Part shown: piece by piece, positions 9,610 through 53,272 of the stretch | Position numbering within the stretch: position 1 is the stretch's first letter | Layout: the number at the start of each line of letters is the position of its first letter | Assembly (NCBI GenBank): GCA_002771135.1 | Contig: PCXO01000004.1 | Location: 1-56,410 of the forward strand | DNA length: 56,410 nt | Source of the DNA: Candidatus Yanofskybacteria bacterium CG10_big_fil_rev_8_21_14_0_10_46_23 | Lineage (GTDB): Bacteria; Patescibacteriota; Minisyncoccia; 2-02-FULL-40-12; IGHO2-12-FULL-4 | Direction of reading: 5' to 3' | The notes under the pieces: model-generated | Database searches by the model: none | What the model was told of the DNA's origin: nothing | What the model saw: only the letters and a program-made list of their open reading frames with translations | Translations under genes and position numbers: made by a program

Positions 9610-9637
9610 TAGACAATAAATAAAAGAATGGTATAAT
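9610..9637 (+). promoter_or_regulatory. Sigma70-type promoter of the orphan ORF at 9676
   Basis: TAGACA-N16-TATAAT with extended -10 TG. Confidence 0.65.
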
Positions 9638-9675
9638 GCGGTCAGAACAAATCGCAACTTGATAAGGAGGACACC

Positions 9676-9942
9676 GTGAGAATCTCTACGGTAAGAAGAA
9701 GCCGGGACGGCTCTATCACTTTAGAGGTCTCTGTTTCCTTGAACGGAGCGACCTTCAATTTCGTCCGCGGACGAAAGGGCCGGCCGATCCATGTTTCCAC
9801 CGAAGGGCCCCCAAGTTTTTTGGGGACGCCTTTGTGCAAAAGATTTCAGAAACGGGCCCTGCGAAGAGCGCGGGCTATCTTCAAAGAGGTCCGGCCCTCC
9901 AACAGGCCGATAATCCAGCTCGGACTTGGGCTCACCACTTAG
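9676..9942 (+). CDS. Hypothetical basic protein (88 aa)
   Basis: GTG start preceded by AAGGAGG; own promoter and terminator; fills the gap between two minus-strand genes. Confidence 0.7.
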   Translation: MRISTVRRSRDGSITLEVSVSLNGATFNFVRGRKGRPIHVSTEGPPSFLGTPLCKRFQKRALRRARAIFKEVRPSNRPIIQLGLGLTT

Positions 9943-9953
9943 TGGGCCTTTTT
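9928..9953 (+). terminator. Intrinsic terminator overlapping the stop of the 9676 ORF
   Basis: GGGCTCAC-cactta-GTGGGCCT followed by a T-run. Confidence 0.55.
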
Positions 9954-9954
9954 G

Positions 9955-10551
9955 TTACTCAGAAAGCGGGATTACTCTTTCGGGGAATTGAGGAAATTCC
10001 GGATAATTGTCTTCCGCTTTTTGGGGACCGGCCCAAACCACCCCCAAAACAACAAAGATAATAACCACCAGACTCGAAACGTAGAAAAACGATTTTGAGG
10101 CTTGACCGGATCGTAAATCCGCGAGGTAATGCCAGAAAACTCCGCCCATGACCGCAAGGACGGTTAAGACCTTGAGAAGAAATCGGGGGGTCAACTCCCC
10201 GTTAAAATAACTGTTAAGCAAGGCGATCAGACTGCCGATCATGAAAACCGCCCCGATAAACAAGGTCAGATAAATCAGCCAACGGCGAACCGACAAATCC
10301 CGCTTAGTCGGCGCCTTTTTATATTCCGTGGCTAAAATTCGATTGAAAATATGGAAAGCCGGGAAGGCGACAATAACGAAAGAGAGGGCCGTTCGGACGC
10401 CTCGGACTCGGCCGAAGGTATCCGCTTCGGGTAACCAAATATCCAACAAATTAAAGACCAGCGAAATCAGGAAACCAACACTCAAATAAAGAGTGACGAT
10501 CAGGAGCAAGTGGAGAAAGAAATCTTTCGGAGACGTTTTTAAATTTTCCAT
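9955..10551 (-). CDS. DUF5671-like membrane protein
   Basis: PKDFFLHL, VRRWLIYLTLF, LNGELTPRFLLK pattern; 5 TM segments. Confidence 0.7.
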   Translation of the reverse strand: MENLKTSPKDFFLHLLLIVTLYLSVGFLISLVFNLLDIWLPEADTFGRVRGVRTALSFVIVAFPAFHIFNRILATEYKKAPTKRDLSVRRWLIYLTLFIGAVFMIGSLIALLNSYFNGELTPRFLLKVLTVLAVMGGVFWHYLADLRSGQASKSFFYVSSLVVIIFVVLGVVWAGPQKAEDNYPEFPQFPERVIPLSE

Positions 10552-10560
10552 ACTTTTATT

Positions 10561-11049
10561 TTAATTTCGTTGCCATTCACTTTTTTGACCCTTAAGTTGC
10601 GCCTCGGCCATAACCAATTCATCATAAATCCCATCAATCAAGTCATACTCTTTTGCTTCTGGTAAATCAACCCAGGCAAATTTATCGGCCTCGCCCGCCT
10701 GAAGCGTGACTTCGCCAGATTCATATTCACCCACGCAAGAGATCACCAGGGAGGGGTTACCATCCTCATGAACTCGAGCCAGACTAGTGACATATTCAAT
10801 ATTTTTTATCTCCAGCCCAACCTCCTCTTTGACCTCACGCCGTAAAGTTTTCTCTAAAACATTATACCAGTAATGCTCCGTGTCTTTAGGCAAAGAGATG
10901 TAGTCATCGGTTTCTAACCGACCCCCCGGAACCGTCCACATTCCGCCGAATCGCTTCTTTGTCGCCGATCGTCGGGTAATCAGATATTTACCATTTTTCA
11001 CGATTATGGCCGTTATCACCACCTCATGAAGATTTTGATTCTGATTCAT
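10561..11049 (-). CDS. NUDIX hydrolase
   Basis: PGG...LRREVKEEVGL Nudix box (with an insertion). Confidence 0.9.
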   Translation of the reverse strand: MNQNQNLHEVVITAIIVKNGKYLITRRSATKKRFGGMWTVPGGRLETDDYISLPKDTEHYWYNVLEKTLRREVKEEVGLEIKNIEYVTSLARVHEDGNPSLVISCVGEYESGEVTLQAGEADKFAWVDLPEAKEYDLIDGIYDELVMAEAQLKGQKSEWQRN

Positions 11050-11050
11050 A

Positions 11051-11896
11051 TTATTTAAATAGACCTTTTAAAATTTTAACATTCTTTTTATCCGGGCCCA
11101 AGCCATCAAAACCGGGCACCTCCAGCAACCAAGGTAACTTATTAACTCGCCTCTCCTTGGCCAAGGCCCTAAATCCGGCTAAGCCGATCTCTCCCCTACC
11201 CAAATTCTCATGTCGATCTCGGTTTGAATTATAGGGGGCCATCGAATCATTGGCATGAATGGCGACCAGCTGATCAAAGCCAACCTCTTTTTCCCATTGG
11301 TCAAACAATATTTTTATATTTCGAGGAACGTAGGCCGCAATCGTCCCCCCCGCTAAAGCGTGGCAGGTATCAAAACAAGCTCGCAGACGATTCGAATTAA
11401 CTTGTTTGATAATCTGGCCAAACTCTTTCAAATCCGAGCCCAACTTATCCCCGCCTCCGGCGGTATTTTCCATTATCAATCGCGACTCGGTTTTAAGATT
11501 TTTCAAAACCGCTTTAATCCCTTTGACCATCCGCGCAATGGCCTCCTTTCGGTTTGAACCCTTGCCTGAGCCAACATGGAAAATCAAGCCATCGGCCTTG
11601 ATCGCATCCGCAATCGCATAATGAGCGCCAAGATTCTCAATTGATTTTTCCCAAGTTGCCTTGTCCGGACTGGCCAGATTGACTAAATAGGCCGCGTGCA
11701 AAAAGACGGCCTTTATTTTACTTTTTCTTTTGGATTCTTGAAATTGTATAACCTCCTCTCGATTCGGCTCCTTCACCCCCCATTGTCGCGGGGAAGCCCC
11801 AAAAATCTGAATTGCGGTGACCCCGAGCTCCTCGCCCCGCTCAATCGCCGTCGAAAGACCGCCCGCCGTTGAAACATGCGCCCCGATTAATGCCAT
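11051..11896 (-). CDS. nfo: Endonuclease IV (AP endonuclease)
   Basis: GAHVSTAGG, HAAYLVNLAS, FHVGS, MENTAG, DTCH, HANDS, DRHENLG, LEVP Zn ligands. Confidence 0.95.
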   Translation of the reverse strand: MALIGAHVSTAGGLSTAIERGEELGVTAIQIFGASPRQWGVKEPNREEVIQFQESKRKSKIKAVFLHAAYLVNLASPDKATWEKSIENLGAHYAIADAIKADGLIFHVGSGKGSNRKEAIARMVKGIKAVLKNLKTESRLIMENTAGGGDKLGSDLKEFGQIIKQVNSNRLRACFDTCHALAGGTIAAYVPRNIKILFDQWEKEVGFDQLVAIHANDSMAPYNSNRDRHENLGRGEIGLAGFRALAKERRVNKLPWLLEVPGFDGLGPDKKNVKILKGLFK

Positions 11897-11912
11897 AAAA
11901 TTAACCTATCAC

Positions 11913-12551
11913 TTAATTTGTTTTTCGCAAAACCGACCAACTGACCAAAAAAATAATCAACCCGAAGACCAAAATATAAATTAAATCTGAAAACTGACCT
12001 GAAATTAGGGCCCCACCGGCATAGGCGATTACAAAAGTTAAGGGAATAGTGCCGATTAAAGTCGCTAAGGCATATTTCCAAAAAGCGATCCCACTAAAAA
12101 AGCCGTAGGCGTAACTGATAACATCAATCGGCAGAACCATCCGAATCAAGACAAGGGAAATAAATTGAGTGTTTTCAGAGACACGTTGCTCATATTTTTC
12201 GATTGTCTCAAGAGAAACAAATTTTGAGATCAACGGGCGACCAAAATGTCGGGCGATTAAAAAAGCGATAATCGCGCCGACCGTCCAGCCGATCGTGGCG
12301 TAAATCGCCGTAGCCAGAGAGCCAATCAAACCAACCATGAAAGGAATCAGGGGGAGCGTAACAACCGGGGCGACCACAATGGAAAGGATCTCGACGGCTA
12401 TGAAGATGGCCGGGGCATAGTAAGGATTGGACTTTAAAAATTCTTTTAAAAAATCAAATTGGCTGTCCCAAAAAAAGAAGGGCAAAGAGACTAAAATAAA
12501 AAGCCCCAAAATAACTCCGCCGATTAAAAATTCATTTTTATCTTTTCCCAT
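11913..12551 (-). CDS. TVP38/TMEM64 (VTT/DedA superfamily) membrane protein
   Basis: AFLIARHFGR, LIRMVLPIDVISY, YALATLIGTIP; ATG 12551 minimises overlap with truB. Confidence 0.8.
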   Translation of the reverse strand: MGKDKNEFLIGGVILGLFILVSLPFFFWDSQFDFLKEFLKSNPYYAPAIFIAVEILSIVVAPVVTLPLIPFMVGLIGSLATAIYATIGWTVGAIIAFLIARHFGRPLISKFVSLETIEKYEQRVSENTQFISLVLIRMVLPIDVISYAYGFFSGIAFWKYALATLIGTIPLTFVIAYAGGALISGQFSDLIYILVFGLIIFLVSWSVLRKTN

Positions 12552-13194
12552 ATTTTTTCTGAAATTCCGCGAGACTAAGCGCTGTCTTTTTATCATACTG
12601 ACCAACCCGAGTTCGCTCCAATGCCGTCAATAATCCCCCCACCCCTAAAATTCGGCCGATATCTCGGGCCAAGGCCCGAATATAGACACCCGGACCAGTT
12701 GTAACATTTAGTTTTAAATCGGGCCAATTATATTCAAGAATTTTTATGGCCTTAATCAGAACTCGGCGTGACTCTAAGTTGACCGCCTGCCCTCGCCGAG
12801 CTAATCGATGCGCGGGTTTCCCGGATATTTTGATCGAGCTAAAAACGGGCGGTCGTTGTTCAATTTCCCCAACGAAACTCCTTAGCGTTGATTCAATTTG
12901 ATTTAGCGCCGGAATCGCTTGAACTTTTGATTTGGTTAATTCTCCCTCCAGATCATCAGTAGCACTTGTCTGCCCCAACCTAATCTCGGCGACATATTCC
13001 TTGTCGCTCTTTAATAAAGTTGCCAATTCTTTCGTAAACTCTCGGCCAACGGCTACGATCAAGATACCGCTCGCCAAGGGATCAAGAGTTCCGGCATGGC
13101 CGACTCGACGCTCTCCGGTAATAACCCGAACTTGATCAACGATATCATGCGAAGTTGGCCCCACCGGCTTATATATCGGGAAAATCCCAGTCAT
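12538..13194 (-). CDS. truB: tRNA pseudouridine(55) synthase
   Basis: KPVGPTSHD, GHAGTLDPLASG, KEY, PPVFSSIKISG, GVYIRALARD. Confidence 0.95.
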   Translation of the reverse strand: MTGIFPIYKPVGPTSHDIVDQVRVITGERRVGHAGTLDPLASGILIVAVGREFTKELATLLKSDKEYVAEIRLGQTSATDDLEGELTKSKVQAIPALNQIESTLRSFVGEIEQRPPVFSSIKISGKPAHRLARRGQAVNLESRRVLIKAIKILEYNWPDLKLNVTTGPGVYIRALARDIGRILGVGGLLTALERTRVGQYDKKTALSLAEFQKKYGKR

Positions 13195-13201
13195 CAAGCC
13201 A

Positions 13202-14887: not shown

Positions 14888-14957
14888 CTGATTACCCAAA
14901 ATTATATCATGTCAAAGTCGTTTAGCTGTGTTGAAGAAAATAAAACACCCCCCGAGC

Positions 14958-15686: not shown

Positions 15687-15715
15687 TTGACTCTATTCTA
15701 ATTTTGATGTAATAT
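15687..15715 (+). promoter_or_regulatory. Sigma70-type promoter of the ORF at 15777
   Basis: TTGACT-N17-TAATAT. Confidence 0.65.
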
Positions 15716-15776
15716 CTGAACAGTTCGCGCTCGTTGTTGAGCGCATTCACATGGGAATTTTTTATTAGGAGGAAAC

Positions 15777-16490
15777 GTGATCTCAGAAAAAATCAGCCTG
15801 ACCCACCCCTACGCCTGCGTAGGGGCCACGTCTTTCGGCGGCCGGTGCCGAAAGATGGGGCAAATCGATCTTACCAAACCGGTGGGCTGGGTCTGCCCGG
15901 CTCACATCAATTCGGAAGACGCGCCGGGGCCGCATACCATTTTGATCAAGTTTCGGATTCCCAGAGAATGGGCCCGCGAGTTGGAGATCGCGGGTATTCG
16001 AAACCTTGGGCGACCGGACTTGGCCTCGCAGGAGGCCTATCATAGGGCCGAAGCCGAGAAGTGGGGGCGCAAGGCAGAGGTGGGAGGCGTAGTCGCCTCC
16101 GGAACCCAGGTTTTCGGAGAAGACGGTATCCGGGGCGCTCATTTGAGCACTTTGCCCACCGAACTCTTCAAAGCTGGCCTCCGCCTCTGCCAGCCCGACC
16201 TTGCCAGGGCAACCAAGGGGAAAGGACAGGATCATGTCTTGATTCTGCCTTTCTCCCAAATCGAGAGTGGGGAAGAAGTCTCTAATCTTCCCCCGAAAGT
16301 TGAGCGGGTCATGGAGTCTCTATTCCGGGCGACGTGGCGATGGGGCCACATCTGGGCCAATCCGCCCGAAGAAAAGAAGAGCTGGAGGATCACCCACACC
16401 GTTAACGTGAGCGGTATGGGTGATCGCACTGCCCTTCAAAAGGACCTCCTCTTCGCCAGAGGCCTTTGGAGTCTCCGACTTATCACCTAA
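15777..16490 (+). CDS. Hypothetical protein (237 aa), possible N-terminal Cys3His zinc site
   Basis: GTG start after AGGAGG; C-x9-C-x15-C-x2-H; own promoter and terminator. Confidence 0.75.
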   Translation: MISEKISLTHPYACVGATSFGGRCRKMGQIDLTKPVGWVCPAHINSEDAPGPHTILIKFRIPREWARELEIAGIRNLGRPDLASQEAYHRAEAEKWGRKAEVGGVVASGTQVFGEDGIRGAHLSTLPTELFKAGLRLCQPDLARATKGKGQDHVLILPFSQIESGEEVSNLPPKVERVMESLFRATWRWGHIWANPPEEKKSWRITHTVNVSGMGDRTALQKDLLFARGLWSLRLIT

Positions 16491-16517
16491 CCTAGCCAGT
16501 CCTTTCGCTTCTACCAC

Positions 16518-16558
16518 AACGGCCCCGCCTCTATCCAGAGGCGGGGCCGTTTTATTAT
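16518..16558 (+). terminator. Intrinsic terminator
   Basis: Perfect 15-bp inverted repeat AACGGCCCCGCCTCT-atcc-AGAGGCGGGGCCGTT then T-rich tail. Confidence 0.85.
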
Positions 16559-16581: not shown

Positions 16582-16604
16582 CAAAAACGAGCCCTTAGGC
16601 TCGT
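16582..16604 (-). terminator. Intrinsic terminator of the NYN gene
   Basis: ACGAGCC-taag-GGCTCGT plus T-run on the minus strand; the stop codon lies in the loop. Confidence 0.7.
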
Positions 16605-17143
16605 GAGAGATTTGCTAGAATCTCATCGATAACTGTTACCTCAATCCAACCCGGATAATCTTGGTAGCGATTGGACAGAGCCTTCTCGAGAGATAAAATC
16701 AACACTTTTTTACCGCGAGACCGAGCCAAGTTGACGGTACTGACATAATCACCGTCGCCACCGACAATGACCAGATCGGTAAAACGAGCCAGTTCAAGCT
16801 GATCTCGCATCATGCTGATCATGACTCGATCGGCCGAGTCCGTGTACTTTAGAGTCTCGCCAAAGTTTGGCGGACACCCCACCACGTAGAACCCGGTATC
16901 AAAGAGGCCCCGGGAAAGCCCGGGGAATAAGTGATTGGGCACAAAAACAAATCCAAGCACAATTTCGGTTTTCGGGCCCAGCTTCTTGAAAAGAAGATCC
17001 TTCAACCAATTTAGACTGGAAAGCGTCCTCCTCGTTTCAAAATTAGGAAGCGAAAACCGGATATTCTCGTAATCAACAAAAACCACAGCAGTCCTCCTGT
17101 CCTTGGGATCAGGAGACTTCCGGTACCTTATTTTTCTCTTCAC
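16595..17143 (-). CDS. NYN domain protein (LabA/DUF88, PIN-like fold)
   Basis: VFVDYENI, DSADRVM, IVGGDGDY acidic motifs, RSRGKKV. Confidence 0.88.
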   Translation of the reverse strand: MKRKIRYRKSPDPKDRRTAVVFVDYENIRFSLPNFETRRTLSSLNWLKDLLFKKLGPKTEIVLGFVFVPNHLFPGLSRGLFDTGFYVVGCPPNFGETLKYTDSADRVMISMMRDQLELARFTDLVIVGGDGDYVSTVNLARSRGKKVLILSLEKALSNRYQDYPGWIEVTVIDEILANLSRA

Positions 17144-17172
17144 CTCTTCCTCTCTTTCTAGGAACTATTTGG

Positions 17173-17216
17173 AATATACCACAGGTATTGACATTGTCAA
17201 CAAAGTTTTATATCAT
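17173..17216. promoter_or_regulatory. Back-to-back sigma70 promoters sharing a palindromic -35 core
   Basis: TTGACA-T-TGTCAA; + strand TTGACA-N17-TATCAT; - strand TTGACA-N16-TATATT with extended TG. Confidence 0.7.
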
Positions 17217-17347
17217 TATTGCCAATACTGAAAGCTCTTTCCCAATTATTGTAACAACCAAAGGAGGTTTTTCACTAAGAGCTTTTGGTCGGCCGTCAGA
17301 TGCTGACGGCCTCTGTACCCTTTTTTCAAGAACAAGAGAGGTAAAAA

Positions 17348-18352
17348 ATGGCAACGATCAAGGAACTTCTGGCCAACGGGGGGCACCGCAAGGGCCCCCG
17401 AAAGAGCAACATCGCGATCGCCGACTTCAAGCCCACCCGGATTCTGCCGAGTGGCGAACCCCCGACCCTGGAAGACCCGCCCGATCTCGCGCGGATCCGG
17501 GCTATTCTGGCCCAGGCCCAAGAGGTCGAACAAAAAATTGAGGGCTACGAAGAAGCTCTCGGGAAGAGGGTCCCCGAGTACCTCTCCATCCGCTGGGAGA
17601 TCCTGGCGGAAATTGGAGAAAAGGGAGGGATGACGAAGGAAGCCCTCCAGCCGGAACTGGAGAAGGTCGAGAGATTGATCGACCGGGTCCTTCAGGCCCC
17701 CGCCCCCTATCGAGTGCCTGGCTGCGTCGCTTTCGCTCTCGCCCTGAGCTCCGCTCAAAGTGAAGAAGAGCTAGGTTGGGGGGTTCGTCGCCTCCAGAAA
17801 GCGGGCTTCTTCTCCGAGGCAACCCGGGGGAACCGCGACGCCTTGCGGGGGGCCAACTTCTCGGTTTTGTTGTCGCTGGAATACAGTGGCAACAAAAAAG
17901 CGGGAAAGGCCCTCAGCCAACTCCGTCGGGTTCAGGGCCTTTTCCTCCAGCAACTGCTCGAGGAAAACGATCAGCGAGCCGCCGAACTGAGAAAGCAGGC
18001 TGGTCCGAATCCGATCGCCGCGGTCAACATCGAGCGGTGGCGGATTAACCCCGGACAGGGCTGGATCGACATCCCCGACCAGCCGGGCAAACGCGGCGGG
18101 CTCATCCTCTTCCATTTGGAGGAGGGCCGGATCCACCCCAAGGGGGTGGCCGGTCGGCATCCCCATTTTGAGGGCCGAGTCCGGCAGATGGTTAACCAGG
18201 GAATTTTTCTGGAGGTCGGGGAGATCCGGGCGGAAAAAATCACCCGCCAGTTCCCAGCCCGGGACCTGTTCTTCCTCGTCCTCGACCTCCAAAAAATGGT
18301 CCGGGCCGGGATTGACCACGCCAAGAAGCTCGAGCTTCGCCGGCGTGGCTAA
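17348..18352 (+). CDS. Hypothetical protein (334 aa)
   Basis: Long ORF, ATG after GAGAGG, visibly GC-richer than core genes, followed by a strong hairpin. Confidence 0.8.
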   Translation: MATIKELLANGGHRKGPRKSNIAIADFKPTRILPSGEPPTLEDPPDLARIRAILAQAQEVEQKIEGYEEALGKRVPEYLSIRWEILAEIGEKGGMTKEALQPELEKVERLIDRVLQAPAPYRVPGCVAFALALSSAQSEEELGWGVRRLQKAGFFSEATRGNRDALRGANFSVLLSLEYSGNKKAGKALSQLRRVQGLFLQQLLEENDQRAAELRKQAGPNPIAAVNIERWRINPGQGWIDIPDQPGKRGGLILFHLEEGRIHPKGVAGRHPHFEGRVRQMVNQGIFLEVGEIRAEKITRQFPARDLFFLVLDLQKMVRAGIDHAKKLELRRRG

Positions 18353-18412
18353 TCCCCACCCCTTCCCTCTCCCATCCCCTCCGACTTAGTTCCTTCCGTT
18401 CTTTCCCACCTC

Positions 18413-18457
18413 AGACCCCTGGGGGTGACACGTCCTGTGTCACCCCCAGGGGTCTTT
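18413..18457 (+). terminator. Long hairpin/terminator
   Basis: Perfect 19-bp stem AGACCCCTGGGGGTGACAC-gtcct-GTGTCACCCCCAGGGGTCT. Confidence 0.75.
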
Positions 18458-18497
18458 CCGTTTGCCCAAATTTCAAGAGAAAGTTAAAATAGAGACC

Positions 18498-19781
18498 ATG
18501 TCGGGACATCGTCAAAACATCAAACGCTCCATTCTCGCCTTAGTCATTATTATCGCCGGCTTGGCCGTGGCCTTTTTATTAACCACCGCCCGCCCCGCCG
18601 CCACAAGTTATAACCAACCCCAAGAGGCTTTTATCGCCGAACTTTACGACTTAATTCAAGAAAAATACTGGGACACCGCCGATGACGCCCGGCTCACCGA
18701 TTTATTCCAACGAGCCCTTGAGAAAACATTTGAGACTCAAATTTCTCTTCAAACTAACGACAAGGCGGGCCTCATTTCTGCCCTGCCTGAAATTCTAGGG
18801 GAAGCCCCCGATGAGGCGACCTTGAAAAAATTGGCTCTGGCCGCCGATATTACTTTGACCAACCTCGAACCCTTTGGCCGAAGTCGCCTTTTCAGTCAAA
18901 AACAGCAACAAGAACTTAGCGACCGCGTCCGCAATGTTGATCCCCAAATCGATCTCTTCTCTGAAATTGGCGTGCCGAAAGAAGCCAGCGAGGAAGAAAT
19001 CGCCACGGCTTATAATCAAAAGATCGCCGAACTGCAAGCTGAACCCGCGACCGAAGCAACCGAACAAAAATTAGCCCTCCTCTCTCGGGCCTTCGAAACT
19101 CTGGGCGACGAAACCAGCCGGAAACAATATACGGAAACCGGAGCCGAAGCCACGGTTGTTGGAAAATATTTAGCCCCGGAAGTTTTTTATTTAAAAATAA
19201 AACAATTTTCGCCCGAAACTTTTAATGAGTTTATCCGCGTGGCTAACGCCAGCGCCGAAGACGGATCAGGAGATGCTATCATTATCGATCTGCGCGGGAA
19301 TATCGGTGGGGCCGTCGATACCTTGCCTTATTTCTTAGGTCCCTTTATCGGCAATAATCAATACGCCTATGATTTTTTCCATCAGGGCGAATACACCCCC
19401 TACAAAACTAAAGTGGGTTGGCTAGAGAGCCTCGTTCCTTTTAAGAAGGTCGCCATTTTGATTGATAGCCAATCTCAATCCTCGGCCGAAATTATGGCCG
19501 CCACTTTGAAAAAATATAATGTTGGCACTTTAATCGGAACCACCACTCGGGGTTGGGGCACGATTGAACAAGTTTTCCCACTGGAACATCAAATCAGCCC
19601 AACCGAAACTTACAGCGCTTTTTTAGTCCACAGCTTGACCCTGCGGAATGACAATCAACCCATTGAGGGTCGCGGAGTGGACCCGACCATTGATATTAAC
19701 AATCCCGCCTGGACCAAAGAATTGGCGGTTTATTTCGGAGAAAGTCCAATCAACCGAGAGATTGAAAAACTTTTAAATTAG
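18498..19781 (+). CDS. S41-family (tail-specific protease-like) membrane-anchored protein with J-domain-like insert
   Basis: N-terminal TM; YLKIKQFS, IIIDLRGNIGG, SQSSAEI, IEGRGVDP S41 motifs; aa stretch DLFSEIGV...RKQY resembles a DnaJ domain. Confidence 0.85.
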   Translation: MSGHRQNIKRSILALVIIIAGLAVAFLLTTARPAATSYNQPQEAFIAELYDLIQEKYWDTADDARLTDLFQRALEKTFETQISLQTNDKAGLISALPEILGEAPDEATLKKLALAADITLTNLEPFGRSRLFSQKQQQELSDRVRNVDPQIDLFSEIGVPKEASEEEIATAYNQKIAELQAEPATEATEQKLALLSRAFETLGDETSRKQYTETGAEATVVGKYLAPEVFYLKIKQFSPETFNEFIRVANASAEDGSGDAIIIDLRGNIGGAVDTLPYFLGPFIGNNQYAYDFFHQGEYTPYKTKVGWLESLVPFKKVAILIDSQSQSSAEIMAATLKKYNVGTLIGTTTRGWGTIEQVFPLEHQISPTETYSAFLVHSLTLRNDNQPIEGRGVDPTIDINNPAWTKELAVYFGESPINREIEKLLN

Positions 19782-25867: not shown

Positions 25868-25894
25868 AAAAAGGGGTTCACAACTCTGAACCCC
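25868..25894 (-). terminator. Intrinsic terminator of the desaturase gene
   Basis: GGGGTTCA-6nt-TGAACCCC plus T-run. Confidence 0.7.
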
Positions 25895-25907
25895 CGCGCT
25901 CGGAGTC

Positions 25908-26690
25908 TTAGCGTCGGATCTCTCGCACTAAGCCTAATCGCTCCAAGGCGACAATGTAGGCCCAGCCGAGATCGAACTCACCCCGTGCATGAGAAAACTT
26001 GGCCGAGCTCGGCCTCTGATGATGGTTCTCGTGGAGAGGCTCCCCACACAAGATAATGTTAACAATGCCACCCCGATTAACCGAGCTGTTGTTTTGATTG
26101 TAACTCGTATAGCCCCACCAAGAGCTTAGCCCCTGAGAATGACCGTAACCATTAATTACTCCGGCAGCCCAGAAAGGGATCCAAATCATCTGGAACAGCC
26201 AGAGGAAACTGGCGGCCCAAACCCCCGCTTGACCGGCTAAAAACCAACCGATCGAGGCCTGCGCCAGCAAAAGGAAGAGGATCCCGAACAGAGAAAACTT
26301 CTCATAGAAATTTTTTTCGAGCCAATCTTGGGGCCCGTAGCCTCGACTGAAATGATCAATCGCCTCTCGATCTTTTATGGCCCGGCGGTAAAGCCTCCAG
26401 CCACCAAAGACGACCGAATTCAAGCCAAAGATTACCGGACTATGGGGATCATCACCCTCGTCGGGATGGGCGTGGTGCCATCGATGCACCCCGATCCACT
26501 CTTTCGTCACCATTCCAGTTGTTAGCCAAAGCCAGAACCGAAAAAAATGACTGACAGCGCCATGAAAAACAACGGCCTTGTGAGTCTGACTCCGATGTAA
26601 AAAGAGCGTCACCCCCAAAGTCGTCAAGTGGGAGGTCAAGATAAACCACCCCAAAGCGACAAAAAACAGATTCCTCCAGTTTATATCCAT
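25908..26690 (-). CDS. Membrane fatty-acid (acyl-CoA/acyl-lipid, delta-9 type) desaturase
   Basis: Three His boxes HRSQTH, HRWHH, HENHH; WAAGVINGYGH; ATG 26690 follows AAAGGAG. Confidence 0.92.
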   Translation of the reverse strand: MDINWRNLFFVALGWFILTSHLTTLGVTLFLHRSQTHKAVVFHGAVSHFFRFWLWLTTGMVTKEWIGVHRWHHAHPDEGDDPHSPVIFGLNSVVFGGWRLYRRAIKDREAIDHFSRGYGPQDWLEKNFYEKFSLFGILFLLLAQASIGWFLAGQAGVWAASFLWLFQMIWIPFWAAGVINGYGHSQGLSSWWGYTSYNQNNSSVNRGGIVNIILCGEPLHENHHQRPSSAKFSHARGEFDLGWAYIVALERLGLVREIRR

Positions 26691-26712
26691 GCCCACTCCT
26701 TTTTAAAGAACG

Positions 26713-26950: not shown

Positions 26951-26983
26951 AATAAAACCCCCCACCAACACGCCAGTGGGGGG
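26951..26983 (-). terminator. Intrinsic terminator
   Basis: CCCCCCAC-10nt-GTGGGGGG plus T-run. Confidence 0.7.
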
Positions 26984-27003
26984 CAAAGCTTGTGGCAAAA
27001 TGT

Positions 27004-27300
27004 CTAGTCGACTTTTATGCCATATTTTTTTAAGAGTCTCTTTTCCCTATCCGTTAGTCGAGAAAGAAAGTACTCCGCTGTTCGGGAAGGTGGTTCATTC
27101 CAAGTTTCGACATTCTTCCCCCACAGAAATACTTTATCCTCTCGCGTTAATTCAAAAGGTGGAGGCGGGGGTGTCTCTTTTTCGGCCAGAGACAACCCGC
27201 AAAAAGAACAAACCAGTGCTTCTCTTAAAACCCGCACCGGGATTTGAGTCGAACGCCCACACTTGTGACAGGTTATATATATGCCGCCTCTCCGCTTCAT
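27004..27300 (-). CDS. Hypothetical protein with Zn-ribbon (98 aa)
   Basis: CHKC...CSFC; ATG after AAAGGAG; own terminator. Confidence 0.7.
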   Translation of the reverse strand: MKRRGGIYITCHKCGRSTQIPVRVLREALVCSFCGLSLAEKETPPPPPFELTREDKVFLWGKNVETWNEPPSRTAEYFLSRLTDREKRLLKKYGIKVD

Positions 27301-27368
27301 TCCCAGCTCCTTTCTAAAAATTTGGAAAGTTCTCTTAAGGTAACCCGCCCTAAGTTAATCTCAACTTA

Positions 27369-31101: not shown

Positions 31102-31404
31102 TTATGGGATATTGGCCTCCGGAATTCGAAAATCAATTTCCGAAATCAACTTTTGAAAACCGATAAATATCTCTTTGGGATCCAGATTATAAAATCCGGC
31201 AACATTCGCTCCGAAAATAAGAATTGCGCCGATAAAGAAGACCAGAGCAAACAACTTGGGGTGACTGCCTATGCCGAAACGAATCAAGTGATACTCGATT
31301 ATAAAGACTTGGATGATATAAAAGGCAACAATAACCCCGACCGAAAGAGCTAAATAATTTAACTCTAATAACGGAGTGATATCGATGGGGAGATTAAATA
31401 TCAT
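31102..31404 (-). CDS. Hypothetical membrane protein
   Basis: 2 TM, YHLIRFG motif; 2 nt from the next gene. Confidence 0.7.
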   Translation of the reverse strand: MIFNLPIDITPLLELNYLALSVGVIVAFYIIQVFIIEYHLIRFGIGSHPKLFALVFFIGAILIFGANVAGFYNLDPKEIFIGFQKLISEIDFRIPEANIP

Positions 31405-34556: not shown

Positions 34557-34582
34557 ACAAAAAGTCCGCGCAGGCGGACTTT
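34557..34582 (-). terminator. Intrinsic terminator
   Basis: AAAGTCCGC-4nt-GCGGACTTT plus T-run, overlapping the stop codon. Confidence 0.7.
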
Positions 34583-35012
34583 AGCGTGAGCCCAGATCAA
34601 CGTGGGTAAGACCGAGTTCTTCTAGCCGAGACTTCAAGCCCCGGATTGCTTCTCGCCAATCAAATGACCTTACGAAGCCCTTTTGGTTGGTGAGAAAGTC
34701 TATAAAGGATTGCAAGGCGATTCGAAGATCGAGAGAACCGCCTACTGAAGCCCCGGAACCCTCGGCAAAACGTTTGGCCCCCTCGATATTGAAGCCAACC
34801 ACCGTAGAAGTCAAGATGGGATGATTTTTGAATACGAGCACCAACTTGATGCCCGTTATGGGGATCTCGGTCACGCTACAATCCTCAAACAAGACCTGAA
34901 TCCAATCCAGATTTTGATTGTAGATAGCATAGGGTCGAAATTCTGAACCGCCCCGAAAATAATCCCTAACGAGCCTAGTTAATTCTTCGGCTCTCTCCGG
35001 TTGATCTGACAT
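34581..35012 (-). CDS. Hypothetical protein (about 143 aa)
   Basis: ATG 35012 (MSDQPER...) follows AGGAGG; own terminator. Confidence 0.72.
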   Translation of the reverse strand: MSDQPERAEELTRLVRDYFRGGSEFRPYAIYNQNLDWIQVLFEDCSVTEIPITGIKLVLVFKNHPILTSTVVGFNIEGAKRFAEGSGASVGGSLDLRIALQSFIDFLTNQKGFVRSFDWREAIRGLKSRLEELGLTHVDLGSR

Positions 35013-35187
35013 CGTCGTAACCCTCCTAATTGTCAAGAATCAAGAATGTGCGCTTTGGTACTGAATAATTTTAACACTTTAATCCTTAGAGCAATCCCCC
35101 GGAATCTTAACCTCACCAGATCTTTTTAGAAACTTTCATAATTCTATCAGCTTTGACCTTGGGCCGACAAGAATCTAGAATAGAAAG

Positions 35188-35403
35188 ATGAAAAAGAAAA
35201 ACCTCTTTGTTTACTTCGGTAAAAACCTAAGCATTGTCATCAGCTTGGTTTTAATTTGGCGGGGTGTTTGGTATATTCTTGATTTTTTTGACGAAATTGT
35301 CCTGAATAACTCCCACATCTACACGGCTGTTGGCGGGATAATTCTCGGCCTCGTCATTCTATACTTACCCGATAAAGACCTCAAAGAGATTGAGAAGCTA
35401 TAG
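35188..35403 (+). CDS. Small two-TM hypothetical protein
   Basis: LIWRGVWYILD...LYLPDKDLKE. Confidence 0.75.
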   Translation: MKKKNLFVYFGKNLSIVISLVLIWRGVWYILDFFDEIVLNNSHIYTAVGGIILGLVILYLPDKDLKEIEKL

Positions 35404-38383: not shown

Positions 38384-38404
38384 AAAAAACCCGCCGAAAG
38401 CGGG
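38384..38404 (-). terminator. Intrinsic terminator
   Basis: CCCGC-tttcg-GCGGG plus T6. Confidence 0.6.
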
Positions 38405-38437
38405 CTAAATAAAAATTGCTCTTCGAAACAAGCCCCC

Positions 38438-38684
38438 CTATGGAAGGACCAGGGCAGCCAAGGCTAAATCAAGACTAAATTGCTTAATCGGGGAAATCGA
38501 GATAGCCTTAGACCCAATTCCGATTTCGGGAGGAGTTCTCGAAAGCCTAATTTTGTGGAGGGGAATTCCGGCCTTAACAAAACAATATATGACATCTTCT
38601 CGGGCCCTTTCCTTGTCCTCGGCTTCAACAAACCCGAGAGTATAGGCCCCCCATCGGAGATACCACCGTTACAATAAAAAACAT
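38438..38684 (-). pseudogene. Probable single-base frameshifted small ORF
   Basis: AAGGAGG-N7-ATG gives only 19 codons. Removing one base near codon 6 gives an 81-aa frame (MFFIVRWYLRWGAYTLGFVEAEDKERARED...LVLP); span is 247 nt = 3n+1. Confidence 0.35.
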
Positions 38685-38722
38685 CTCGTTGCCTCCTTAA
38701 GTTGCGGGCTCCTACTGAACCC

Positions 38723-39085
38723 TCAACCCAACCTGAACCTTATACTATTAAACCTCGCGTAGTAATCCTCCGGACTCAAATGGGGATCAAGCCCATTTAA
38801 TTCCGATCGCCCGTCACAATCCGGGCAGATATCTTCTTTAAGGTTCGCCAGTGTTGTGGCCGCAGTGCACATCTTGCACCGCTTTGCCGCTCGGCTCAAA
38901 AGCAGGGCCTTGTCATCGCGAAAAGTATTCCCGCCGAAAGTTGATTCGGCGTACTTCGAAGACGGCCGGTATGGGAAAACTGCCCGGGCCTGCTCCCTTG
39001 TCATTGGCTGAACGACGACTTTCAGCTTTTCGCCGTGATCTGACACAAACTCGCCCAAAAACTCAGCTGGATCTATTTCCTTCAT
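38723..39085 (-). CDS. Hypothetical protein with C-terminal Zn-finger (120 aa)
   Basis: CKMC...CPDCDG; ATG after GAGGAG. Confidence 0.75.
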   Translation of the reverse strand: MKEIDPAEFLGEFVSDHGEKLKVVVQPMTREQARAVFPYRPSSKYAESTFGGNTFRDDKALLLSRAAKRCKMCTAATTLANLKEDICPDCDGRSELNGLDPHLSPEDYYARFNSIRFRLG

Positions 39086-39137
39086 TACCTTTTCTCCTCT
39101 TGGAAACCGATCATGATCCCTTCAAAGTGCTGGCCGT

Positions 39138-39166
39138 AAAATAGATTAAAAACTACCTCTCGTCAA
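39138..39166 (-). promoter_or_regulatory. Sigma70-type promoter of the 38723 ORF
   Basis: TTGACG-N17-TATTTT. Confidence 0.5.
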
Positions 39167-39806: not shown

Positions 39807-39826
39807 AAAAAGCCCCGTCGTGGGGC
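39807..39826 (-). terminator. Intrinsic terminator
   Basis: AGCCCC-5nt-GGGGCT plus T-run. Confidence 0.6.
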
Positions 39827-39837
39827 TCAATCTTATA

Positions 39838-40065
39838 TTAGATCCGTTTCCGGACGGTTTCTTCCATCTCAACCCGGCACCCCCCAAGGGAAGCTCCGGC
39901 CTTGATTCCCTTAACAAAAGCCTCTAGCAATTCCTTTGAGCCAAGGGACTCCTTCCAGAGTCCTTGTTCATCGGAAACTTCGATATTAAAGACCTCAATG
40001 GGCGGGTCCAAAGCAAGGTGATAGCACCTTATCCTCACTTTGATCTCTTTTAGGTTTTTTGCCAT
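39838..40065 (-). CDS. Hypothetical protein (75 aa)
   Basis: ATG after AAAGGTAGG; own promoter and terminator. Confidence 0.7.
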   Translation of the reverse strand: MAKNLKEIKVRIRCYHLALDPPIEVFNIEVSDEQGLWKESLGSKELLEAFVKGIKAGASLGGCRVEMEETVRKRI

Positions 40066-40095
40066 CTGTGCCTACCTTTCAAATTTACTGCCCGT

Positions 40096-40124
40096 ACTAT
40101 ATGGCCGAAATCAGCCTTAGTCAA
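40096..40124 (-). promoter_or_regulatory. Sigma70-type promoter of the 39838 ORF
   Basis: TTGACT-N17-TATAGT. Confidence 0.65.
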
Positions 40125-50150: not shown

Positions 50151-50222
50151 AATTTGTATTAAAGGTATAGCAGATTTTCAATTGAAAACAAGCTATCTTA
50201 CTCCAACTTTATTAGTGTCATC

Positions 50223-50252
50223 ATTATACAACTATTTATAAAGGAATGTCAA
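50223..50252 (-). promoter_or_regulatory. Consensus sigma70 promoter of the surface-protein/sortase operon
   Basis: TTGACA-N18-TATAAT. Confidence 0.75.
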
Positions 50253-50263
50253 GTAAAACCACG

Positions 50264-50331
50264 AAAAAACCGCTTGGTCGGCGGTTTGAAAAGAACTGGG
50301 GGCGAGCAACGAAATCGTCAGCAACGCCCCC
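50264..50331 (-). terminator. Tandem hairpins after msrB
   Basis: GGGGGCG...CGCCCCC hairpin, then AAACCGC-7nt-GCGGTTT plus T-run. Confidence 0.65.
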
Positions 50332-50360
50332 CTCTTTAAGTCAAAGTACAAATTACTTAT

Positions 50361-50759: not shown

Positions 50760-50813
50760 AAATTTTTATAGTCTTTATTGATAAACAATATTATTTGAAT
50801 GTAAAGTCCAAAC

Positions 50814-51482
50814 TTAATTTAGCTCTTCATCTGGGCTGGCAACAGCCGTGATCTCAATTTCCAAAATTACTTCCGTCAACTGATCGTGGACCCGGACTGT
50901 CGCCTGAGGATTGGTGGCTGTTCCCATATCGATACTCTCCGGTTGGCCGGGCACGGGTTGGCCACCGGCCGCTCCGCTCCCCAAAGCGCTATTTTCCTCG
51001 GTACCGTTGTCATAATTTCTAGCTTGAAAGATCCCCTCCTCCAAATCAATAGAATTAATTAAAGCATAGCCGTCATTGGAAGCTACGGCCATCATTGTTC
51101 CGGAGAGATACCGACCGGTATTCTCGACAATAAAAGTTCGTTCTTGCCCGGGCAGAATAGGCGAATCAATCAAGTAAACGCTTCGGACTCCCGACTGGGT
51201 TGCGAGCCAACCGGCCAAATCACCGGCAACGCCAATCTCGGCCAAAGGTTCAAACTCGACTGGCGATAACCGCCCTTCAAAATCTAAAACCCCCGAATCA
51301 TCATGAACAACAAAAACGCCCGGCGAAAGAGGTTGCGAACCGCTTAAATTTCGAACGACCACGGAATAACTTGCCGGCTCGTTCTCGGGATCATCAATAA
51401 TAACAACGGGGTCATTTCGAAGAGCGAAAAAGGCGATAATCGCCAAAATAATTACAATTCCAATGCCTAAAACTTTTTTCAT
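50814..51482 (-). CDS. Spondin_N-domain membrane-anchored protein
   Basis: TM; NLSGSQPLSPGV, MAVASNDG, YDNGTEEN. Confidence 0.8.
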   Translation of the reverse strand: MKKVLGIGIVIILAIIAFFALRNDPVVIIDDPENEPASYSVVVRNLSGSQPLSPGVFVVHDDSGVLDFEGRLSPVEFEPLAEIGVAGDLAGWLATQSGVRSVYLIDSPILPGQERTFIVENTGRYLSGTMMAVASNDGYALINSIDLEEGIFQARNYDNGTEENSALGSGAAGGQPVPGQPESIDMGTATNPQATVRVHDQLTEVILEIEITAVASPDEELN

Positions 51483-51561
51483 ATTTTTTGTTAAACAAAG
51501 ACTTTGACACCTTTATTACGGTCAACCTAACATGCGTTCCCAAGATGCTCAAGGAATAAGG

Positions 51562-52023
51562 TCAGCCCTCAAATTCAATCGTGATTTCAACCGCGTCGTC
51601 GAATTCGGGCAGGCCCGAAGGATTGTCTTTTTGAAGAATCAGCGTGCCGCGCTTGAAGAAATCAGGATCGCCTTCTTTGTAAGGACTTTGGAAATTAATT
51701 GTGCCCTCAAAGGGGACAAAATCAGTCGTCATCCAATTGGCGCTAGTCATGGCAATCCCTTGGCCGATGATCAAGCCATCCCAGTTGGTTAAAATCAGAG
51801 GAAAGCTAGCTTCAAAAAACCAGTTCCCCCGAGCTTGACCCGTAACTCTTAGGGGCGAGCTAACCGTTTGGCCCTCTCGCGGTGACTCTAAAATAACAAA
51901 TTCAGTCTCTAGGGGCGGATTCAAGTCTTCGCCCATATCTCCCGGGACCCGGTTATCCCAAAATAAGAAGTAGCCCCCCACCAGTAGAAGGGCGATAATA
52001 ATCAAAATAAGAATCGGTTTCAT
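51562..52023 (-). CDS. Gmad2 immunoglobulin-like domain protein
   Basis: TM; VSSPLRVTGQARGNWFFEASFP, WMTTDFVPF, KDNPSG; ATG 52023. Confidence 0.85.
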   Translation of the reverse strand: MKPILILIIIALLLVGGYFLFWDNRVPGDMGEDLNPPLETEFVILESPREGQTVSSPLRVTGQARGNWFFEASFPLILTNWDGLIIGQGIAMTSANWMTTDFVPFEGTINFQSPYKEGDPDFFKRGTLILQKDNPSGLPEFDDAVEITIEFEG

Positions 52024-52056
52024 TATCCCCATCAAAACATTATTTTTAAGATCTTG

Positions 52057-52109
52057 CAAAAAAATAAAATCTCCGTCCGGAGCGACCCTAGGGGTCGAAC
52101 GGACGGAGA
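52057..52109 (-). terminator. Composite hairpin terminator
   Basis: TCTCCGTCCG/CGGACGGAGA outer stem, CGACCC/GGGTCG inner stem, T-rich tail. Confidence 0.7.
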
Positions 52110-52117
52110 AAAATCCG

Positions 52118-52372
52118 CTAATCTTCCAGATCCCCCTCGAGGAACTCCCGAAGAATCTTTTCCCTTTTCCTTATGACCTCTTTTCGGTCGCGGGCTCGGT
52201 AGGGAATGTTTTTATCCAGCTCATTAACCAGTTGATCCCAGTATCTACCTGTCCGCAAGGACAGGCCCAAGATCATTAGGGCTTCAAAGGGGAGCCGGAT
52301 AGAAACCGACATTTCGGCTAAATCAGCCCAACTTTTAACCCCTCGAGAAGATCGCCCCGTCTTTTCTTGCAT
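52118..52372 (-). CDS. Hypothetical protein (84 aa)
   Basis: ATG after AAGGAGG; own terminator. Confidence 0.7.
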   Translation of the reverse strand: MQEKTGRSSRGVKSWADLAEMSVSIRLPFEALMILGLSLRTGRYWDQLVNELDKNIPYRARDRKEVIRKREKILREFLEGDLED

Positions 52373-52417
52373 ACTTGCCCTCCTTGAGAATTCAGACCCC
52401 GATATAATTTGTCAAAG

Positions 52418-52909
52418 TTATCTTATAATAATCGTTCCAACCTGACGGGCCTCAAGATGATCATGATAAGCCCACGTACCGATCTCATTAAAAACGAAGG
52501 AAAATTCGCCACCGACAGCAATGCCTTGACAAGCGTCAAAGGCATTAATCGCCCTAGCCGTGCCACAAAAACTTAAGCTTGAATTTGGATAAGCCGAGTG
52601 GATCGGGTGGACAGCCGAAGCCGGCCAAAAATTTTGAGAACTGTTATTTTTGAAAATGACAGTTGTCCCCCGCTCAACTTCCAGCGTTCTGGGCGAAAAA
52701 CCGGAATCAGAGTAAACAATGGTCGAAACCTCGCCCTTACCATCTTCTTCCGGGGTAATTGTCGGCGAAAGTGACGGACTGGGACTTTCCTCTATCATCT
52801 CTTCTTCTTGGTTATCATTAATATCTTCCGGATTAGACCCCGATCGAAACAGAAAAAGACCAATAACGATTAAGACCACAATAGTAATTATTATAATTGC
52901 TGTTTTCAT
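52418..52909 (-). CDS. Cupredoxin-fold membrane-anchored protein
   Basis: TM; YSDSGFSPRTLEVERGTTVIFKN, F.FVFNEIGTWAYHDHL; canonical type-1 Cys-His-Met site not evident. Confidence 0.75.
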   Translation of the reverse strand: MKTAIIIITIVVLIVIGLFLFRSGSNPEDINDNQEEEMIEESPSPSLSPTITPEEDGKGEVSTIVYSDSGFSPRTLEVERGTTVIFKNNSSQNFWPASAVHPIHSAYPNSSLSFCGTARAINAFDACQGIAVGGEFSFVFNEIGTWAYHDHLEARQVGTIIIR

Positions 52910-52945
52910 GTTGGTTTTATCCTAGCAAATCGAATTAGATTTTCA

Positions 52946-52978
52946 AAACAAAACCCCCCGCTTTGGCCGGAGGGGGGG
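52946..52978 (-). terminator. Intrinsic terminator
   Basis: C-run/G-run stem plus TTTTGTTTT. Confidence 0.6.
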
Positions 52979-52992
52979 AAGAACTAGAAACG

Positions 52993-53211
52993 TTAGTCTG
53001 GATTGGTCCTTCGAAGATCCCGAAGAAATTGCTGGAACTTCCGATCTGACCAAAGCGCTTCGGATACGACTGGGTCAGATAGGAAAATTTCTTCAATTCC
53101 TTTTTGTTGGCAGTAGCAGATCCAACCCCGACAACCATCAGGAATCATCGGAGCTTGACAATAGGGGCAACTTGGCCCCTCGATAAAATCCCTAAGAATT
53201 CGTTCGGACAC
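52993..53211 (-). CDS. Hypothetical Zn-ribbon protein (72 aa)
   Basis: GTG after AGGAGG; CPYC...C...CYC; own terminator. Confidence 0.6.
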   Translation of the reverse strand: MSERILRDFIEGPSCPYCQAPMIPDGCRGWICYCQQKGIEEIFLSDPVVSEALWSDRKFQQFLRDLRRTNPD

Positions 53212-53272
53212 AAAGCCTCCTATCAACTTATAAAAGACACTGGTTTCAGACTATCACGAATTTCTAGAAAGA

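Follow-up and report, generated by a model that had tools for sequence, protein, structure and literature searches.

Base pairing of the Shine-Dalgarno (SD) motif with the anti-SD at the 3' end of 16S rRNA is the textbook route by which bacterial ribosomes find start codons. In the genome studied here the two are uncoupled: the anti-SD is gone, and a minority class of accessory genes keeps perfect, correctly spaced SD motifs. The stretch analysed, 56,410 nucleotides (nt) and called the window below, is contig C8:1-56410 of Candidatus Yanofskybacteria bacterium CG10_big_fil_rev_8_21_14_0_10_46_23 (G000 among our genomes), a metagenome-assembled genome (MAG) of 571 kb in 13 contigs, 95% complete, with 0.7% contamination and one 16S gene. 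Its small genome, its lack of uL1 (see below) and its weak DnaG matches, the best three of them to MAGs of Moraniibacteriota at 33-37% identity, put it with the Parcubacteria/Paceibacteria-type bacteria of the candidate phyla radiation (CPR). An earlier note on this DNA had set SD-less core genes apart from about a dozen SD-led single-gene cassettes, which it took to be acquired from an SD-using donor or to form a translational regulon. The class of scattered, autonomous SD-led genes turned out to be real, by the sharp position of its motifs, its own promoters and terminators, and its differences from the other genes. Our leading explanation, to which we would give about an even chance, is that these motifs are inherited cassette signals orphaned by a private loss of the anti-SD, and that the core uses leaderless or otherwise SD-independent initiation.

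In order to call genes we used a simple longest-ORF script, which gave 647 non-overlapping open reading frames (ORFs). AGGAG occurred between -20 and -3 at 33 of 645 starts, compared with 5-11 in control windows, and AAGGAG at 21 starts, compared with 2-3. Its position was sharp: 29 AGGAG motifs lay at -16 to -9 where ~4-5 were expected, a peak 6-fold over the background of ~2 per 4-nt bin found elsewhere. SD motifs preceded GTG as often as ATG. Under a strict rule (AGGAG or GGAGG inside -17 to -4 of the chosen start), 35 of the 647 genes (5.4%) were SD-led, of which ~10 are expected by chance. Scoring by pairing energy with 13-nt and 10-nt tails was abandoned in favor of these positional k-mers, as the upstream window of G000 scored no better than far-upstream sequence.

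The SD-led genes differed from the core in conservation, as the earlier note had supposed, and in composition. BLASTP found a homologue in G019, a complete genome of the same order, for 5 of the 35 SD-led genes and for 332 of the 612 others (odds ratio (OR) 0.14, p=2.5e-6), a depletion that persisted when the minimum ORF length was set to 100 or to 150 amino acids (aa). The G+C content (GC) of the coding sequence (CDS) was 0.492 in SD-led genes and 0.455 in the others (p=1.7e-4), with 0.531 and 0.475 at third codon positions (GC3). Among genes without a homologue the SD-led ones were again GC-richer (0.497 vs 0.445, p=3e-5). Expression-linked codon bias was rejected as the cause of the high GC3, the ribosomal-protein genes being average (0.474). 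The other main comparison genome, G002, belongs to the same family, and about half of it was used; the relatives available included no genome of the same genus. Synteny with G002 and G019 was strongly eroded, these relatives being too diverged for empty sites to be seen. The SD-led genes of G000 were not clustered (1 adjacent pair vs 1.8 expected), and an arrangement in islands was dropped for this genome, though it is present in G002. Overall, SD-led genes did not preferentially encode secreted or membrane proteins (26% vs 22%, p=0.29), though those of G357, a genome described below, did (9 of 15).

The single 16S gene, on contig C9, has a 3' exon that ends in GGAUCACUUACUUA where the Rfam consensus is GGAUCACCUCCUU, aligned with top posterior probability. 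The anti-SD core, which the earlier note had suggested checking for CCUCC, reads CUUAC: two core positions are changed and a third change lies downstream, which makes three substitutions within 13 otherwise invariant bases. Helices 44-45 aligned with high confidence, the pairing of helix 45 (h45) is kept, and the gene sits 63 kb inside a 74-kb contig. A duplex of AAGGAGG with the variant tail has -1.8 kcal/mol, compared with -10.1 kcal/mol for the canonical tail. The tail could be read in 29 order relatives: 28 have GGATCACCTCCTTTCTA, with CCTCC kept, and the remaining one, G032, has CCTTC (the single-base variant CCUUC); the tail of G000 is absent from every other GTDB species representative. 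It recurs in two metagenome contigs from different Joint Genome Institute (JGI) projects, identical over ~400 nt, and an assembly error is therefore unlikely. A translational regulon that works by anti-SD occlusion, as in Bacteroidota and as the earlier note had proposed in the alternative, presupposes that CCUCC is intact; with the anti-SD mutated, a regulon based on anti-SD pairing or occlusion is unsupported.

Compensatory SDs for the variant tail (GUAAG, AAGUAAG, RRGURRG) were considered and rejected: they gave small bumps, and 12 sites at or below -7 kcal/mol compare with 10.7 in composition-matched shuffles. Single cases can be found. The tsf gene (C5:3275-3727; read as EF-Ts from its N-terminus) has AGGTAAG at 12 nt, which matches the variant tail over 7 pairs, and its orthologue in G019, where the anti-SD is canonical, is led by AAGGAGG. 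The genes for S19, S8, L28 and NusB, named from their N-termini, are preceded by AAGTAGG or AAGTAA. All of these are anecdotes that reach no significance over the whole genome. The 16S gene itself contains, near E. coli position ~1390, a ~0.85-kb insertion with a LAGLIDADG-type homing endonuclease ORF (C9:~64,550-65,400), on account of which Infernal misplaces the 16S 3' end unless the 3' exon is searched on its own.

The genome as a whole is SD-less. Upstream of starts (-11 to -3) G was depleted (0.16-0.20) and A enriched (0.36-0.43), and the strongest upstream words were TATAAT, TAGAAT, GATATA and TGnTA. TATAAT occurred 30 times inside -20 to -3, compared with 3-4, and TANNNT peaked at exactly -12 (63 genes vs a background of ~15), so placed that the hexamer ends 6-7 nt before ATG. 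A -10 box stood ahead of 8.6% of ATG candidate starts, compared with 3.2% for GTG and 2.1% for TTG. Such a preference for ATG would follow if starts next to a -10 box had no leader and required AUG. To judge from promoter position, many core genes are probably leaderless; in the window, those with a box adjoining ATG include trxB-like, truB, UDG and many other genes, often with TGnTATAAT (Table 1). The earlier note had given the core genes A/T-rich leaders without an SD. The lack of an SD held up, but the "leaders" are mostly -10 promoter boxes.

Within the window, strong SD motifs had been attributed to twelve scattered genes, and each coordinate was found to be a start codon or a motif adjoining one, with an SD-like motif 4-9 nt before the start (12 of 12). 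Six of the motifs are AAGGAGG or AGGAGG, two AAGGAG and one GAGGAG; GAGAGG, at two sites, is weaker, and AGGTAGG, at one, is non-canonical (Table 1). The last, as AGGUAGG, could form 7 pairs with the variant 16S tail, 2 of them G-U, at -5.5 kcal/mol. Many units were also said to carry a promoter and terminator of their own, which we can confirm for at least 7 of the 12: promoter-like and terminator-like sites flank the genes starting at 9676, 15777, 17143, 17348, 35012 and 40065, and for the one at 39085 there is a promoter, with the terminator lying distally.

Table 1. Units with SD-led ORFs, and core genes with a -10 box adjoining the start codon, in the window
Span (strand)	Promoter	SD motif	ORF or product	Terminator	Remark
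9610..9949 (+)	TAGACA-16-TGnTATAAT, 9610-9637	AAGGAGG 9664-9670	88-aa ORF, GTG start, 9676-9942	hairpin 9928-9949	stand-alone; CDS GC 0.55
15687..16551 (+)	promoter-like 15687-15715	AGGAGG 15767-15772	237-aa ORFan, GTG start, 15777-16490	15 bp, 16518-16551	stand-alone; GC1/2/3 = 0.60/0.49/0.68
16587..17200 (-)	TTGACA-16-TGnTATATT, 17200-17173	weak GAGAGG; leader GAGAGGAAGAG	NYN-domain protein (Pfam), 182 aa, GTG start, 16595-17143	16604-16587	stand-alone
17188..18455 (+)	TTGACA-17-TATCAT, 17188-17216	weak GAGAGG 17336-17341	334-aa ORFan, 17348-18352	20 bp, 18413-18455	stand-alone; GC 0.62, GC3 0.75
25872..26701 (-)		AAGGAG 26696-26701	fatty-acid desaturase, 260 aa, 25908-26690	25895-25872	
26957..27312 (-)		AAGGAG 27307-27312	98-aa ORF, 27004-27300	26984-26957	
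34561..35170 (-)	promoter-like 35170-35141	AGGAGG 35022-35027	143-aa species-level ORFan, 34581-35012	34582-34561	
38625..38698 (-)		AAGGAGG 38692-38698	19-aa ORF only, 38684-38625		in 3' part of the 120-aa gene transcript
38723..39166 (-)	promoter-like 39166-39138	GAGGAG 39094-39099	120-aa protein, 38723-39085	distal	
39810..40124 (-)	TTGACT-17-TATAGT, 40124-40096	AGGTAGG 40071-40077	75-aa ORF, 39838-40065	39828-39810	
52118..52385 (-)		AAGGAGG 52379-52385	84-aa ORF, 52118-52372		
52954..53221 (-)		AGGAGG 53216-53221	72-aa Cys-rich ORF, GTG start, 52993-53211	52974-52954	
4705..5697 (-)	tgcTATAAT 5692-5697		trxB-like core gene		box ends 6 nt before ATG; probably leaderless
1176-2150	-10 box adjoining ATG				
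5749-7131	-10 box adjoining ATG				
7482-8075	-10 box adjoining ATG				
9315-9569	-10 box adjoining ATG				
12538-13194	-10 box adjoining ATG		truB		
31102-31404	-10 box adjoining ATG				
35188-35403	-10 box adjoining ATG				

Among the SD-led window ORFs scanned, Pfam recognised just the NYN protein and the fatty-acid desaturase; 7 of the other 8 ORFs scanned together gave no match, nor did the Cys-rich ORF, and the 98-aa ORF gave a sub-threshold zinc-finger match only (17 bits vs a cutoff of 27). Three ORFs (237, 334 and 143 aa) had no homologue outside the species among 5.8e9 proteins. The sole match of the 237-aa ORFan was itself, and it is present in two other assemblies of the species, where independent pipelines called the 237-, 182- and 334-aa genes; the 237- and 334-aa ORFans show strong coding periodicity with their high GC3. 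Elsewhere in the genome, Pfam named among SD-led genes a reverse transcriptase (RVT_1), a YcaO-nitroreductase fusion, a Clp protease, and SPFH, SprT-like and ABC-membrane domains, and PyrG, MurG and Tmk were read from N-terminal sequences. No ribosomal protein was found among the SD-led genes that could be named, and no search was made for rpsU. The description of these ORFs as mostly unrecognisable is thus right for the window, but some SD-led genes, such as those for the desaturase, the NYN protein, PyrG, MurG, Tmk, the reverse transcriptase and the YcaO protein, are no orphans.

As the earlier note had remarked, the window shows no integrase, none occurring among the 40 ORFs scanned with Pfam, and att sites were not found either. 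The region 38.7-43 kb, next to tRNA-Asn, was examined as a possible island and rejected; the small genes there are of ordinary kinds (AAA kinase-like, FtsJ, HAD, GGDEF), with no integrase among them. The cassettes were also tried, and rejected, as non-coding RNA genes: the only Rfam match at the gathering threshold was tRNA-Asn, and the transcript 9644-9955 matched no Rfam family and had a fold that was not significant (z -1.6). The 88-aa ORF in it has no Pfam match and was left uncalled as a gene in two other public assemblies. For the 98-aa ORF we found no promoter of its own, and it may be co-transcribed with the upstream CHASE2-cyclase gene.

The earlier note dealt with one window, and the pattern is not particular to it or to its genome, as it recurs across the order and the class. 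Five other genomes of the class share an SD-led minority, with GC enrichment significant in four and homologue depletion in 4 of the 4 tested. The SD-led share is 12.7% in G002 and 5.2% in G019, both of which have a canonical anti-SD and SD-led genes that are GC-richer and homologue-poor. Three further genomes were analysed over 250-290 kb each. In G357, which lacks the anti-SD (tail AAUUAAAC, also given as GGAACAAUUAAAC), 15 of 316 genes were SD-led and 26 motifs fell in one 4-nt bin, compared with a background of ~1.3. G140, likewise anti-SD-less (tail AUAUCC), gave a sharp AGGAG/GGAGG peak with 9 of 293 genes. In both the SD-led genes were GC-richer (p=8e-7 and p=0.002, respectively) and poor in homologues, which were found for 1 of 15 SD-led genes vs 175 of 301 others in G357, and for 1 of 9 vs 155 of 284 in G140. 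G131, with a near-canonical core (tail ACUCC), showed a peak and 15 SD-led genes, with a GC difference that was not significant (p=0.066). Taken together, these findings show that the division into SD-led and SD-less genes is class-wide and does not track the anti-SD.

Cruder counts extended this to more genomes. Across 61 genomes of the order, which is SD-poor, AGGAG-N5-10-ATG was in ~2-fold excess over the reversed pattern. A class sample of 401 genomes gave 128 readable tails, of which 51 were non-canonical, and genomes without an anti-SD (50) showed the same excess as canonical ones (30), with a median ratio of 2.03 vs 2.20 (p=0.28); this class-wide ratio is confounded by composition and is weak evidence only. 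In G000 the excess of the pattern (87-31=56) compares with ~25-30 extra genes by position, i.e., about half of it is not at real starts. G357 also holds two tandem paralogous lipoprotein-like genes (G357:C1:90730-92328), 47% identical and with the same 22-nt leader cacttgcttcAAGGAGGatgtc, a case in which an SD-bearing leader was kept through duplication in an anti-SD-less genome. Its SD-led family had no orthologues in 49 other anti-SD-less genomes.

How could such a genome have arisen? We propose that it would contain three kinds of gene start. The first, probably leaderless, would have an extended -10 box ending 6-7 nt before AUG and be typical of the first genes of conserved operons; the second would be SD-less, A-rich junctions within operons. 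The third (~5%) would comprise stand-alone leadered genes with a -35/-10 promoter, a 5' untranslated region (UTR), AGGAGG at 4-9 nt from an ATG or GTG start codon, and an intrinsic terminator. These may represent the pool of accessory genes with fast turnover in these CPR bacteria, lineage-specific, richer in GC and GC3, and scattered singly. In that case the SD would be part of a portable cassette, useful in the many relatives whose 16S ends in CCUCC, and the species-private change to CUUAC would have essentially abolished canonical SD pairing here. The motifs of G000 would then be inherited signals that lack a pairing partner, and no resident SD regulon would act through them. That the cassettes move horizontally is suggested by their conservation and composition, loss of SD function in this species by the 16S tail, and the SD-led mRNAs may be translated independently of the SD, probably more weakly.

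Several observations weigh against this explanation. No donor of the cassettes was identified, and no integrases or att sites were found. The SD-led share of G000, 5.4%, is not below the 5.2% of the anti-SD-bearing G019, and the two anti-SD-less genomes of other families have a similar share (3-5%); both would be unexpected if the motif were useless in the absence of an anti-SD. SD-led genes are GC-richer in genomes of 41-52% GC alike, which fits an intrinsic property of the class and a foreign origin equally well. Orthologues of G000 and G002, though their proteins are only 26-34% identical, agreed in SD status (an SD on both members of 5 pairs; OR 37.5, p=2.8e-5); among them, the NYN gene is likewise SD-led in G002, and the desaturase orthologue there (31% identity) is also led by AAGGAG. 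The 120-aa protein of the window belongs to a conserved family that is absent from Pfam, with 52 representatives at 50% clustering and 100-150 aa in length, and all 7 diverged homologues examined carry an SD-like motif suitably spaced from the probable start codon; six of these seven coding sequences exceed their contigs in GC. At least part of the class is thus old, with its SD under selection, and no recent import.

The retention of the SD in diverged orthologues and in the 120-aa family speaks against a simple recent import from unrelated donors, and the donor hypothesis of the earlier note stands only in part: conservation and composition do fit an acquired or separate gene pool, but a family counted there as orphan keeps its SD wherever it was examined. 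The old, conserved SDs were presumably kept in hosts with an anti-SD, and the evidence favours a pool of portable, self-contained accessory cassettes that circulates within these lineages. If the motifs are indeed orphaned signals, imported or portable genes would be translationally handicapped in such hosts, which would amount to a passive barrier to the expression of foreign genes.

The same facts can be read in favor of a working signal. AGGAGG might function here with something else in the place of the 16S tail, be it a different site on the rRNA, a protein or an RNA, that recruits leadered accessory mRNAs, and be kept by selection in anti-SD-less lineages as well. This is the main rival, though we consider it doubtful. 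It would account for the sharply spaced and often perfect motifs of G357 and G140, genomes of other families without an anti-SD, for the equal crude excess of the AGGAG pattern with and without an anti-SD, for the SD conserved over the 120-aa family and between G000 and G002, and for the absence of visible erosion of the SD-led share in G000 relative to G019. However, no anti-SD-independent mechanism of this kind is known, and none was found in Amin et al. (2018) or in the parts of Tsurumaki et al. (2022) consulted, while published surveys saw no SD in anti-SD-less organisms (PMC6107228). Every host of a member of the conserved 120-aa family may have an anti-SD, orthologues of the SD-led genes of G357 are nearly absent from other anti-SD-less genomes, and the class-wide ratio suffers from its composition bias and from the pattern matches away from real starts. 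Should selection nevertheless maintain AGGAGG in anti-SD-less hosts, SD leaders would be read without the help of the 16S 3' tail, through a second recruitment channel for a mobile gene pool; we hold this stronger form to be less likely still. If true, it would mean an anti-SD-independent way of reading SD-type leaders.

Two further explanations treat one half of the finding as an artefact. A canonical anti-SD might be present, and the SD-led genes might be a normal minority that depends on it, as in the relatives; CUUAC would then be an error of assembly or binning, or belong to a copy without function or to one of two rRNA operons. The canonical tails of 28 of 29 relatives, the origin of the genome as a 95%-complete MAG in 13 contigs, the frequent mis-assembly of rRNA genes, and the suggestion of Amin et al. 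(PMC6107228) that single-base anti-SD variants with strong SD motifs may be sequence errors would agree with it. We find it improbable, as the tail and the 400 nt around it are identical in the two metagenome contigs, the 16S lies deep in its contig with helices 44-45 well aligned and h45 paired, and consensus errors do not typically take the form of three substitutions among 13 bases that are otherwise invariant; moreover, one 16S was found, whose closest relatives belong to the same family and order as the protein-based relatives. The dichotomy itself might instead come from the choice of start codons and from chance motifs in GC-richer spurious ORFs. Our calls are longest-ORF calls with about 10 of 35 strict SD assignments expected by chance, the ORF at 9676 is uncalled elsewhere, one site leads 19 aa only, and one "SD gene" lies inside the 16S. 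Yet the positional peak stands 6-fold over background, the association holds at 150 aa and above, several SD-led genes have Pfam domains, ORFans show coding periodicity, independent pipelines called the 237-, 182- and 334-aa genes, and the pattern was replicated in five other genomes; we therefore regard such an artefact as very improbable.

Parts of this picture resemble known systems. In Bacteroidia (Flavobacterium johnsoniae) the anti-SD is intact and sequestered by bS21, bS18 and bS6, and rpsU, a target of regulation, is among the genes with an SD. An SD-less genome, A-rich sequence upstream of starts and a few strong-SD genes are common to both, whereas here the anti-SD core is mutated, the SD-led genes are accessory or orphan and not ribosomal, and many core genes look leaderless. 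Phage "morons" and ORFan islets consist of one gene each, of atypical composition and equipped with a promoter and terminator, that has been inserted between conserved neighbours. The cassettes are similar as autonomous promoter-gene-terminator units of atypical GC, scattered singly and of unknown function, but they lie in a bacterial chromosome with no prophage context, integrase or att sites found. The core starts recall groups C and X of GeneMarkS-2, where a Pribnow box lies 6-8 nt before the first genes of operons and a ribosome-binding site (RBS) serves the others (Lomsadze et al., 2018; PMC6028130). The TANNNT peak at -12 and the preference for AUG agree with group C; in that group (Actinobacteria, Deinococcus), however, an SD generally serves the leadered genes and those inside operons, and the anti-SD is intact, whereas here the SD is confined to ~5% accessory genes and the anti-SD is gone.

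Organisms without CCUCCU were reported to be also without SD before their ORFs, and in no case did a variant SD fit a variant anti-SD (Amin et al., 2018; PMC6107228; with Lim et al., 2012). G000 is similar in its rare variant tail and in the lack of an enriched SD complementary to it; it differs in that a small, sharply positioned class of canonical SDs persists, which a whole-genome motif search would probably miss. An anti-SD-lacking subgroup of Parcubacteria, 52% without CCUCCU and with an overlapping loss of uL1, was described by Tsurumaki, Saito, Tomita and Kanai (2022; RNA 28:1041; PMC9297842), and its passages on anti-SD, SD and leaderless genes contain no discussion of SD motifs on genes. 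Again the 16S tail of a CPR bacterium lacks CCUCCU and uL1 is absent, and our 51 non-canonical tails of 128 come close to that 52%; the loss in G000, by contrast, is private to one species or genus in a canonical order, not clade-wide. Thus the anti-SD loss of Parcubacteria, the absence of SD in anti-SD-less organisms and dual leaderless/RBS models are already published. Our literature search found no paper in which CPR bacteria restrict their SD sites to accessory genes. Gene finders with a single start model may mis-call leaderless core genes or SD-led accessory genes in CPR, and the 88-aa ORF at 9676 may be an example.

Ribosomal protein uL1 (PF00687) was found in 0 of the 61 order genomes, G000 included, whereas 14 of 14 control genomes matched. 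The whole order is without uL1 and yet mostly bears an anti-SD (28 of 29 tails), so that the overlap reported by Tsurumaki et al. fails here and the two traits are uncoupled.

Other observations concern single units of the window. At 17173-17216 two near-consensus promoters (11/12 each) on opposite strands overlap back to back, and the NYN gene and the 334-aa ORFan diverge from them. In a strain variant of the 143-aa ORFan (ENA ERZ27293344), the upstream 122 nt including the SD and the 5' part of the CDS are identical, and ~25 substitutions, not adenine-specific, are clustered in the 3' half of the CDS, a localised C-terminal diversification. Eight sequences of the 120-aa family share a common "FPYRP...ESxFGGN" block, followed by Cys residues in the two that are long enough. 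From the stop of the 120-aa gene, ~330 nt (38388-38720, -) lead to a good terminator at 38406-38388 with only the AAGGAGG-led 19-aa ORF inside; this stretch may represent an extended 3'UTR, a gene for a small peptide or an RNA that went unrecognised. Finally, the gene at 18462-19781 (+) encodes an S41 peptidase with a DnaJ-like domain (Pfam E=3e-6) in place of the usual PDZ.

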